This document shows positions 7,192 to 25,976 of a DNA stretch of 25,976 nt, piece after piece (position 1 is the first letter of the stretch; every line of letters begins with the position of its first letter). Below the pieces are notes generated by a model. That model ran no database searches. It saw only the letters and a list, made by a program, of their open reading frames with translations, and was not told where the DNA came from. The position numbers and the translations under genes are program-made. Source of the DNA: a virus; the UHGV virus genome UHGV-1612078. One strand, given 5' to 3'.

Positions 7192-7517
7192 TGACAGACA
7201 CTCAGCTTTTCGAATATCTTTATTTTTCGCCAAAAACTATTAAAAATAAATTGGTGAATCATTTTGAAATTTTGGCAAATAACAACATTTTAAGCGAATT
7301 TTATCCCAAGCAATACAAATTACAAAAAGGTGTATTCAAAGGATGCAGAGTTTTGTGCACTGCTCCTAATGCACGGCTAATGAATAAAATTCCATATTTT
7401 ACCATGGAATTTATTGATGGACCTTTTAAAGGATTAATTACCCAAAGTTTAATGGCATATGATTCTGAGCCGTTTTTAATTAAAGAACAATCCTGGATAA
7501 ATTTATTTTCTAATTGA
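7188..7517 (+). CDS. hypothetical protein (109 aa)
   Basis: ATG-ATG start overlapping the upstream stop (translational coupling). No motif recognised. Confidence 0.5.
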
Positions 7518-7524
7518 GGTTTAT

Positions 7525-7887
7525 ATGAAAGCATATCAAATTCTTGAAGGCACACATAAAGGTACTATTTATTTTGAAGATGGTATTCAAGCACGAATTA
7601 TCGTTTCTAAAACCTTTAAAGAGGACTCTTTTGTAGACCCAGAAATTTTCTATGGTTTGCATGCCCGTGAAATTGAAATTGAGCAACAGCCTACAGTTAA
7701 AATTGAAGGTGGTCAACACCTGAACGTTAACGTTCTGCGTCGTGAAACTCTGGAAGATGCAGTTAAGCATCCGGAAAAATATCCGCAGCTGACCATCCGT
7801 GTATCCGGTTATGCAGTTCGCTTTAACTCTCTGACTCCGGAACAGCAGCGCGACGTTATCGCTCGTACCTTTACTGAGAGTCTGTAA
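7525..7887 (+). CDS. autonomous glycyl-radical cofactor (GrcA/YfiD-like)
   Basis: C-terminal about 60 aa ([60 protein letters not shown]) matches my recollection of E. coli GrcA, including the RVSGY glycyl-radical motif. SD gagg. Confidence 0.85.
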
Positions 7888-8108
7888 TGGCAAAGATAAT
7901 TATTGAAGGTTCTAAAGATGTGCTAAATGCTTTCGCAGAATGGTTTAGTAATTCAGGCGAACAGCAATTTAATGAAGCGTGGAATATGGGTGATATTAGT
8001 GGAATTTATCCTACGACAGAAATTTCTGTTCAGGGATATGGCATTCATGAACCTATTCGTTTAGTTGAATATGATTTATGTACTGGTGAGGAAGTCAAAT
8101 ATGATTGA
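7887..8108 (+). CDS. hypothetical protein (73 aa)
   Basis: Start overlaps the upstream stop (taATG). Confidence 0.5.
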   Translation: MAKIIIEGSKDVLNAFAEWFSNSGEQQFNEAWNMGDISGIYPTTEISVQGYGIHEPIRLVEYDLCTGEEVKYD

Positions 8109-18672: not shown

Positions 18673-18754
18673 GACAAAAAGGAAGTTCAGAAATAGATTA
18701 TATGGACTGCCATTAAAAAGATGACTAGAATTAAACCGGTAAATGGAGGTAGTG

Positions 18755-19057
18755 ATGTTATACTCAAAGGCTCGTGAAATTTACGAAACTAAGATTAAAG
18801 AAGCTGTACTTCAATTCGCAACAACGATGCGATGGACAAATGATTGGGAATATTCAAAAAATCATAAAAAGCCCCTGGTGACAAGAAAGGCTCATATGTT
18901 AGTGTTAATAGACCGTGAGCAGATTAAAGCCCGAGAAGCCCTCCAGAATCATAAAAAGGCTGCCTTTGAATGGTTTATGGATAACACTGCTCCTGAGACT
19001 AAGAAAGCAGTGAGCGCCTGGTTCAGTGGAAAAAATTGTGAAAGAAGTTTCTTTTAG
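18755..19057 (+). CDS. hypothetical protein (100 aa)
   Basis: SD ggagg then ATG 18755. Confidence 0.5.
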   Translation: MLYSKAREIYETKIKEAVLQFATTMRWTNDWEYSKNHKKPLVTRKAHMLVLIDREQIKAREALQNHKKAAFEWFMDNTAPETKKAVSAWFSGKNCERSFF

Positions 19058-23559: not shown

Positions 23560-23823
23560 ATGTTTAAAGTATATGGTTATGATAGCAACATCCACAAATG
23601 CGTGTATTGCGATAATGCAAAACGTCTCTTGACTGTGAAGAAACAGCCGTTTGAATTTATCAACATTATGCCGGAAAAAGGTGTTTTTGATGATGAGAAA
23701 ATTGCTGAGCTTCTGACTAAACTAGGTCGTGATACTCAAATCGGCTTAACAATGCCTCAGGTATTTGCTCCTGATGGAAGTCATATTGGTGGATTTGACC
23801 AACTGCGAGAATATTTTAAATGA
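23560..23823 (+). CDS. nrdC: glutaredoxin/thioredoxin NrdC
   Basis: 87 aa, MFKVYGYDSNIHKCVYCDNAKRLL... with CVYC redox motif. Matches my recollection of T4 NrdC. Confidence 0.9.
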   Translation: MFKVYGYDSNIHKCVYCDNAKRLLTVKKQPFEFINIMPEKGVFDDEKIAELLTKLGRDTQIGLTMPQVFAPDGSHIGGFDQLREYFK

Positions 23824-25070: not shown

Positions 25071-25544
25071 ATGTTATTGACTGGCAAATTATATAAAGAA
25101 GAAAAACAGAAATTTTATGATGCACAAAATGGTAAATGCTTAATTTGCCAACGAGAACTAAATCCTGACGTTCAAGCTAATCACCTCGACCATGACCATG
25201 AATTAAATGGACCAAAAGCAGGAAAGGTACGTGGATTGCTTTGTAATCTCTGCAATGCCGCAGAAGGTCAAATGAAGCATAAATTTAATCGTTCTGGCTT
25301 AAAGGGACAAGGTGTTGATTATCTTGAATGGTTAGAAAATTTACTTACTTATTTAAAATCCGATTACACCCAAAATAATATTCACCCTAACTTCGTTGGA
25401 GATAAATCAAAGGAATTTTCTCGTTTAGGAAAAGAGGAAATGATGGCCGAGATGCTTCAAAGAGGATTTGAATATAATGAATCTGACACTAAAACACAAT
25501 TAATAGCTTCATTTAAGAAGCAGCTTAGAAAGAGTTTAAAATGA
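25071..25544 (+). CDS. 49: endonuclease VII (Holliday junction resolvase, gene 49)
   Basis: 157 aa, MLLTGKLYKEEKQKFYDAQNGKCLICQRELNPD...HLDHDHELNG... Zn-binding CxxC pairs and H-N-H-like core. Matches my recollection of T4 gp49. Confidence 0.9.
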   Translation: MLLTGKLYKEEKQKFYDAQNGKCLICQRELNPDVQANHLDHDHELNGPKAGKVRGLLCNLCNAAEGQMKHKFNRSGLKGQGVDYLEWLENLLTYLKSDYTQNNIHPNFVGDKSKEFSRLGKEEMMAEMLQRGFEYNESDTKTQLIASFKKQLRKSLK

Positions 25545-25976
25545 CAATTGAAAAAGAAATTGAAGGATTGATTCATAAAACTAATAAAGACCTTTTGAAC
25601 GAGAATGCTAATAAAGATTCTCGTGTTTTTCCAACTCAACGGGACCTTATGGCTGGTATTGTGTCTAAACACATTGCCAAAAATATGGTCCCGTCTTTTA
25701 TTATGAAAGCGCATGAAAGCGGAATTATTCATTTTCATGATATTGATTATTCCCCTGCTCTTCCATTTACTAATTGCTGTTTAGTAGATTTAAAAGGAAT
25801 GCTTGAGAACGGATTTAAGCTTGGTAATGCGCAGATTGAAACTCCTAAATCAATTGGCGTTGCTACTGCAATTATGGCACAAATTACCGCACAGGTTGCT
25901 TCTCACCAATACGGCGGAACGACTTTTGCTAATGTAGATAAAGTACTTTCTCCTTATGTTAAACGCACCTATGCAA
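25541..25976 (+). CDS. nrdD: anaerobic ribonucleotide reductase NrdD, N-terminal part (runs off window)
   Basis: ATGA-coupled to gene 49. MTIEKEIEGLIHKTNKDLLNENANKDSRVFPTQRDLMAGIVSKH... matches my recollection of the T4 NrdD N-terminus. No stop before the window end. Confidence 0.8.
   Translation, partial: MTIEKEIEGLIHKTNKDLLNENANKDSRVFPTQRDLMAGIVSKHIAKNMVPSFIMKAHESGIIHFHDIDYSPALPFTNCCLVDLKGMLENGFKLGNAQIETPKSIGVATAIMAQITAQVASHQYGGTTFANVDKVLSPYVKRTYA

Follow-up and report, generated by a model that had tools for sequence, protein, structure and literature searches.

The window analysed here is the whole of a 25,976-nucleotide stretch from the virus genome UHGV-1612078, a T4-like phage, and its open reading frame (ORF) at positions 7525-7887 of the plus strand, encoding 120 amino acids, is on sequence grounds vs.6 of the T4 type, whose protein Y06I is the phage version of the GrcA/YfiD "spare part". 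The best reading of the data is that a recent host-to-phage gene-conversion patch lies within an old phage gene, the glycyl-radical domain encoded there apparently not being newly acquired. This joint reading, of an old vs.6 gene for a spare part of pyruvate formate-lyase (PFL) carrying a recent patch of host grcA, is held with high confidence. The gene and its biochemical role are already known, at textbook level for T4, and what the recurrent host-tracking conversion adds to them is of modest interest. The ORF has exactly the limits given in the original prediction, an earlier reading of this DNA from its letters alone, and the features of the gene are as follows.

7525-7887, plus strand: coding sequence of vs.6/Y06I, an ORF with Pfam, PHROG and PDB matches, predicted to encode a stand-alone glycyl-radical spare-part protein homologous to GrcA/YfiD.
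7516-7519, plus strand: GAGG ribosome-binding site of vs.6, read from the sequence and overlapping the TGA stop codon of the upstream gene vs.7 (7515-7517).
7525-7702, plus strand: phage-type 5' part (amino acids 1-59), AT-rich with a third-position GC content (GC3) of 0.20, homologous to, but diverged from, the N-terminal half of GrcA and with no DNA match in E. coli.
7703-7877, plus strand: putative host-derived tract of 175 nt, identical to E. coli grcA and encoding the structured glycyl-radical domain (amino acids 60/61-118, equivalent to GrcA 67/68-125).
7807-7809, plus strand: GGT codon of Gly95 in the motif RVSGYAV, the predicted radical glycine, equivalent to GrcA Gly102 and PflB Gly734 in alignments to 6OWR and to PFL residues 697-759 (the equivalence to Gly734 being based on the PFL literature, PMC8683613).
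7878-7887, plus strand: phage-native tail G AGT CTG TAA, with the only two differences from E. coli (7878 and 7881).

The vs.6 product is a small stand-alone protein (approximately the 14-kDa class) without the catalytic barrel of the glycyl radical enzymes, and its ORF is bounded by its neighbors, the TAA stop codon overlapping the ATG of vs.5 (7887-7889) in the sequence TAATG at 7885-7889. The Pfam family Gly_radical (PF01228) matches amino acids 60-101 with 67 bits (cut-off 22.2), the PHROG 1209 profile covers residues 1-120 (E 5.7e-63), and the best solved-structure match is E. coli GrcA (PDB code 6OWR, E 9e-42) followed by PFL residues 697-759 (E 5e-26), which bears out the GrcA-like character originally predicted for the gene. 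The neighboring genes match phrog_2049 and phrog_1986, and the gene order vs.7-vs.6-vs.5-vs.4-regB is common to the window and phage RB69. A megablast search with the ORF yields 757 phage records, of which 745 align over the greater part of the ORF; these records belong mostly to T-even phages of Escherichia, Shigella and Yersinia and are in many cases annotated as vs.6 or "autonomous glycyl radical cofactor". The product is assigned as a full member of the phage vs.6 family (PHROG 1209) and, with its stand-alone form, PFL-type radical domain and homologous N-terminal half, corresponds to the structural definition of GrcA (TIGR04365, IPR011140). An antisense ORF at 7510-7893 (127 amino acids) is a mechanical ORF without support and was rejected.

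The composition of the gene changes sharply between its two halves. The GC content in 100-nt windows rises from 0.27-0.32 at 7500-7650 to 0.47-0.50 at 7700-7850, and GC3 increases from 0.20 in the 5' half to 0.43 in the 3' half, a value to be compared with a mean of 0.26 (sd 0.05) for the 40 long ORFs of the window and reached by 0.28% of 60-codon windows. Leucine in the 3' half is encoded by CTG in six of six cases (6% of leucine codons in the other genes of the window) and proline by CCG in three of three (13% elsewhere in the window), and the arginine codons are four CGT and two CGC. Codon usage is not uniform across the gene, and the AT-rich 5' half and host-like 3' half described in the original prediction are both recovered. 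Nearly all of the other 60-codon windows with a GC3 of 0.43-0.45 fall in a DUF7203 ORF (18743-19057, 104 amino acids), with one more at about 22629; the DUF7203 ORF has no match in E. coli genomes and so is not another host patch.

At the nucleotide level, positions 7703-7887 are identical to E. coli grcA at 183 of 185 positions (98.9%) in all of 5,426 complete E. coli genomes (5,426/5,426), far above what protein conservation would lead one to expect. Exact identity extends over 175 nt at most (window 7703-7877, L001 1501-1675), and the mismatches at 7878 and 7881 fall in the last codons, where a GAG AGT tail is common to the window, RB69, EC-F1 and BL02 and is not that of E. coli in the alignments. 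Similarity to E. coli stops at the vs.6 stop codon. The break within the gene had been placed at about 7690; the break itself stands, with the identity starting at 7703. The C-terminal 60 amino acids of the product are identical to E. coli GrcA 68-127, in agreement with the likeness given in the original prediction. The 5' 178 nt of vs.6 have no DNA match in the 5,426 complete E. coli genomes, and the rest of the 26-kb window has no match to any E. coli chromosome. A palindrome (AGGTG-GTCAA-CACCT, 7706-7720) at the 5' edge of the tract was picked up by a minus-strand terminator scan; it sits in sequence common to E. coli grcA and is probably incidental.

The identity of the last 183 nt was compared with the grcA genes of bacteria, 120 species among those listed, and is 181 for E. 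coli, 179 for Escherichia sp., 177 for E. ruysiae, 172 for Citrobacter, 160 for Klebsiella (K. pneumoniae) and 152 for Salmonella. The 100% identity over 175 nt and the closer match to E. coli than to other Escherichia argue for a recent host origin of the tract, and the 3' half of vs.6 appears to be host DNA captured recently, as had been supposed beforehand. Some Tequatrovirus patches show minor variation within the same 183 nt, EcNP1 and Ozark both carrying A at position 24 and Ozark also G at position 12, and these states occur in the bacterial sample in non-coli Escherichia (E. ruysiae and Escherichia sp. MOD1-EC7003), a hint that the donors or alleles of Escherichia may not have been the same for all Tequatrovirus patches. 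With regard to an AT-biased decay of the patch in phages, the changes relative to E. coli in the EcNP1 patch are four GC-to-AT and five AT-to-GC, small counts of mixed direction.

A corresponding patch of a different host type occupies the same position of vs.6 in the phages of Klebsiella. With K. pneumoniae grcA as the query, 106 phage records are recovered with 95-99% identity over query positions 202-369, and the carriers of this Klebsiella-type patch are Jiaodavirus phages of Klebsiella, with KPV15 reaching 98.2%. The Jiaodavirus patches hold essentially all of the K. pneumoniae-specific sites, including the segment LLDAVEH (LEDAVKH in E. coli, two amino acid differences), and the E. coli phages have the E. 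coli state at every one of these sites. In KPV15 the GC3 rises from 0.25 upstream to 0.60 within the patch, and the 3' tail (ACA GAG GCA CTA TAA) remains phage-type. At least two separate overwritings are therefore indicated, the donor in each being the host of the phages concerned (E. coli or K. pneumoniae), a count that is based solely on the comparison of E. coli-type with Klebsiella-type patches. Within Jiaodavirus the number of synonymous substitutions per synonymous site (dS) is 0.05-0.11 for the 5' halves and 0.17-0.42 for the 3' halves, and the 5' edge of the patch shifts by 3 nt among phages; the greater divergence of the 3' halves together with the shifting edge suggests several events or donors within this genus.

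Isolation host and patch type do not always coincide, as the E. coli patch persists in Tequatroviruses isolated on Yersinia, Serratia or Hafnia, and one Jiaodavirus with Salmonella as its isolation host has the patch of Klebsiella. Scans of IMG/VR with an exact pattern for the phage 5' end (six loci) and with a protein-guided search (80 loci) gave no third host-matched lineage. It is judged an evenly balanced proposition that concerted evolution ties the domain-coding half of vs.6 to the grcA of the current host, the phage copy being repeatedly overwritten once the two are similar enough, so that phages of E. coli would have E. coli sequence and those of Klebsiella would have that of K. pneumoniae. 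If true, the tract would be a built-in record of the recent host history of a T-even phage, and a case of natural and measurable host-to-lytic-phage gene conversion in the best-studied phage. Retention of the patch might then reflect an advantage of matching host PflA/PflB exactly.

Several observations on individual sequences accompany these comparisons. In KPV15 (NC_055715, L136 1322-1683) vs.6 is annotated as two ORFs with a frameshift in the 5' half, the Klebsiella-type 3' patch being intact, and the frameshift is either a sequencing error or the mark of a decaying gene. A grcA copy is present on a 276-kb Klebsiella plasmid, and GrcA genes are also found in assemblies labelled Vagococcus sp. 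and Neisseria musculi; the Vagococcus copy looks enterobacterial and may be contamination.

The gene surrounding the patch is older than the patch. GrcA-like genes with the same two-part layout are present in Karamvirus, Pseudotevenvirus, Slopekvirus, Krischvirus, the Aeromonas T4-likes, T5-like phages and jumbo Yersinia phages, and there the last 183 nt reach an identity of only 70-85% with any of the 120 listed bacterial grcA genes, which is the level predicted by protein conservation alone. An hhalign comparison of ten phage with ten bacterial GrcA N-terminal halves gives a probability of 98.1% (E 1.4e-13) over 61 columns with 28% identity, and the profile match covers the bacterial residues 1-67 at full length. 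Between the window and RB69 the dS is 0.046 for the 3' half of vs.6, 0.52 for the 5' half, and 1.1-2.4 for the flanking genes vs.7, vs.5, vs.4 and regB. The presence of the layout in distant genera, the N-terminal homology and the contrast in dS together point to an old phage gene with a young domain-coding stretch. The dS of the 5' half (window 7525-7702 compared with L002 1501-1680) is itself well under that of the flanks; vs.6 as a whole may have been exchanged among T-even lineages at a later date than its neighbors, or synonymous sites may be constrained. T5-like phages of E. coli and Salmonella carry their GrcA-like gene adjoining tRNA genes (IrisVonRoten, L131 78-969), and the 3' half of the IrisVonRoten-type gene is ~72-77% like any listed bacterial grcA, indicating no recent host patch.

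The function of the protein can be outlined from the literature on Y06I of T4 and YfiD of E. coli. In PMC8683613 these two are given as the only validated PFL spare parts, with the glycyl radical installed by the PFL-activating enzyme (PFL-AE), and the activated protein is described as forming a complex with oxygen-cleaved PFL and restoring its activity (Wagner et al. 2001, as cited there). The same source describes YfiD residues 61-127 as folding like PFL 693-759 and residues 1-60 as disordered, the latter aiding binding and activation. In the window phage, oxygen would cleave the host PFL at the radical Gly734, the C-terminal domain of the spare part would take the place of the lost C-terminal piece by docking into the cleaved enzyme, the host activase PflA would put the radical on the glycine of the spare part (Gly95), and PFL activity would be restored. 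We infer that the protein may keep host fermentative metabolism running in infection under low or fluctuating oxygen.

The original prediction had named two possible repair targets, host PFL and the anaerobic ribonucleotide reductase NrdD of the phage. Oxygen cleaves NrdD, too, at the radical glycine, and nrdD lies in the same window (25541 to the end), starting where it had been noted at the window end. In the jumbo Yersinia phage fHe-Yen9-04 (L128 1-957) the GrcA-like gene is two genes downstream of nrdD, which is only a contextual hint, and an early comparative paper guessed at a role in nucleotide metabolism (PMC1524935). However, a PDB search with the C-terminal domain matches GrcA (E 2e-35) and PflB residues 700-759 (E 4e-26), and its 34 significant matches are without exception enzymes of PFL type; even at E <= 10 the search brings up no chain of a ribonucleotide reductase. 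Structures of T4 NrdD are among the PDB entries. The replacement of the domain by the PFL-specific version of the host in two phage lineages also fits a host target, and for T4 Y06I both activation by PFL-AE and the restoration of cleaved PFL are reported in PMC8683613. Of the two targets, host PFL therefore stands and NrdD does not find support in the structural matches, making a spare part for NrdD in place of host PFL an unlikely function of the vs.6 product.

The word chimeric, applied to the gene in the original prediction, would imply the fusion of a host domain with unrelated sequence, but the N-terminal half is homologous to that of GrcA. A true chimera, in which a 3' fragment of grcA was joined to an unrelated phage ORF by illegitimate recombination, would account for the abrupt change in composition and identity at 7703 and for the lack of DNA similarity to grcA in the 5' 178 nt. 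It is considered very unlikely, as against these points stand the full-length alignment of phage and bacterial N-terminal halves given above, a phmmer alignment that carries the 6OWR match of the vs.6 product back to residue 22, and the occurrence of the same full-length layout in distant phage genera that have no host-identical patch.

The likeness of the 3' half to grcA could in principle have arisen with no transfer at all, through extreme conservation of the domain and the convergence of codons in highly expressed genes. The 60-amino acid domain is indeed identical in 28 of the sampled bacterial species, and even the phages of E. coli and those of Klebsiella have some stretches of 30 nt in common. 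Nevertheless, among species whose protein segment is the same, agreement with E. coli at the DNA level is only 140-181 of 183 nt (median 162), with values above 172 found only in other Escherichia, and the unconverted phage genera are at 70-85%. Under a chance model in which synonymous codons are sampled from the codon usage of this phage, ~24 of 60 codons would be identical to those of the host and 58 are observed (P ~3e-28), corresponding to 178 of 180 identical bases against an expectation of ~138 of 180. Codon convergence is rejected by this codon-sampling test and by the distribution of bacterial identities, and an origin without transfer is extremely improbable.

Transfer from phage to E. 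coli, or an artefact of assembly or contamination, has the same negligible probability, since phage-to-host transfer occurs in general with nothing specific to favor it here, and the direction from host to phage is indicated by the host-like GC3 of the tract (0.43) in an AT-rich phage (mean 0.26), by an identity that follows the bacterial species tree, by the conserved chromosomal context ung-grcA-eamB of E. coli grcA, by a phage 5' half that is found in none of the E. coli genomes and, as concerns an artefact, by the presence of the patch at the same 5' boundary in ~650 independently sequenced phage genomes, T4 included.

Host-to-phage conversion of vs.6 is further in keeping with the position of the tract boundaries. 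The 5' boundary coincides with the start of the conserved EGGQHLN block, the edge of the pre-existing phage-host homology, and is also near the structural boundary of YfiD (61-127 folded and 1-60 disordered; PMC8683613). The 3' edge is reached shortly before the stop codon, itself overlapping the start of vs.5. In the proposed scheme vs.6, an old gene of T4-like phages, would have been overwritten recently in this lineage by host grcA over 7703-7877, with homologous recombination (gene conversion) of host DNA with replicating phage DNA as the likely route. The ends of the tract would be set by the limits of phage-host homology and, on the 3' side, by the need for TAATG to persist for the start of the next gene, that is, by selection on the vs.5 start codon, and the observed boundaries fit a gene conversion limited in these two ways. 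The agent may be the recombination machinery of T4 itself acting on fragments of host DNA.

A number of points weigh against this interpretation or qualify it. The conversion route is a deduction from sequence comparison, and T4 degrades host DNA and carries modified cytosines. The near-identical patch of Tequatrovirus and Mosigvirus could have spread from phage to phage after a single conversion; the two genera may have been converted independently or may share one patch by phage-phage recombination. The patches of the Jiaodavirus phages AM_K2 and KP179 are only 89-92% like K. pneumoniae among the 120 bacterial species listed. Queries with the grcA genes of Salmonella (best phage match 83.8%) and Enterobacter (86.3%) revealed no patch specific to either genus, and the best match to a Citrobacter query (94.5%) is the E. 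coli-type patch, with no Citrobacter-specific patch detected. In E. coli phages of other genera the 3' half is not converted. With regard to function, the NCBIfam equivalog model for GrcA (TIGR04365) gives 154.9 bits for the vs.6 product, under its cut-off of 170 bits, with a match spanning profile positions 25-126 only, and E. coli GrcA itself scores 233.9. The lower score is attributed to divergence of the N-terminal 20-60 residues of the vs.6 product. The PFL function is carried over from T4 Y06I, from which the window protein differs by one amino acid.

Other features of the window were noted in passing. Five tRNA genes (Met, Tyr, Asn, His and Arg) are located at 62-581, a set that differs from the eight tRNAs of T4 itself. 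The segment 141-297 (tRNA Tyr and Asn) resembles, at ~83-84% identity, the tRNA clusters of 213 plasmid records from E. coli (~94-110 kb, taken as phage-like plasmids) and has no chromosome match. The genes related to nucleotide reduction and their neighbor lie toward the end of the window.

23560-23823: nrdC, glutaredoxin-like.
25071-25544: ORF preceding nrdD, putative gene 49 (endonuclease VII).
25541-25976: first 145 codons of nrdD, running off the window end, the start overlapping the end of the preceding ORF.

A search of the literature found no description of the nucleotide-level host patch or of its Klebsiella counterpart; key older papers on T4 and GrcA, including Wagner et al. 2001, lay beyond that search and a prior mention is possible. 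The interest of the patch is that a strictly lytic phage that destroys host DNA carries 175 unaltered bases of host chromosome in a working gene. It offers a natural system for measuring how often host DNA converts phage genes, for finding out whether an exact fit to the host enzyme is required of a phage "repair part", and for reading recent host history from a phage genome, as in the phages above whose patch is not that of their isolation host.

The closest known system is T4 itself. T4 Y06I (vs.6) is the same gene with the same neighbors (vs.7, vs.5, vs.4 and regB), and 119 of 120 amino acids are identical, the difference being at residue 54 (proline in T4 and glutamine in the window). The exact match to E. 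coli is 178 nt in T4 and 175 nt in the window, the 3' edge differing by 3 nt, and the last codons are GAG AGT CTG in the window compared with GAA AGT TTG in T4. E. coli GrcA/YfiD (6OWR, TIGR04365) has the same two-part layout of a flexible N-terminal half and a structured radical half, and its published biochemical role is the same as that of the T4 orthologue. The window protein differs from it in the N-terminal half, which is ~28% identical, seven residues shorter and lacks the motif MITGIQIT...NSFWLLD, and in expression context, with vs.6 placed in a phage early-region cluster and E. coli grcA at the ung-grcA locus. The C-terminal domain of PflB (~697-759) is the piece that the spare part replaces and shows the same fold segment and RVSGYAV motif; PflB is an enzyme of 759 amino acids, whereas the phage protein amounts to its last ~60 residues with a short N-terminal region, and the sequence of the window domain is GrcA-type, not PflB-type (TKEQQQDVITRTFTQSM).

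A parallel outside the glycyl radical proteins is provided by the cyanophage psbA mosaics, in which, in work by Zeidner in 2005 and Sullivan in 2006, host and phage photosynthesis genes have reportedly undergone intragenic recombination. The likeness lies in a phage copy of a host metabolic gene with host patches recognizable by composition and identity and a likely exchange through homologous recombination, and the systems differ in the gene, the host group and the phage family. Compared with psbA, the window patch is a single sharply bounded tract the size of one domain, with 100% identity and with host-species specificity in two sister phage genera. The vs.6 tract combines excess identity, a sharp boundary, a compositional shift, an age younger than that of the surrounding gene and host specificity, the properties by which a host-to-phage gene-conversion patch is recognized.

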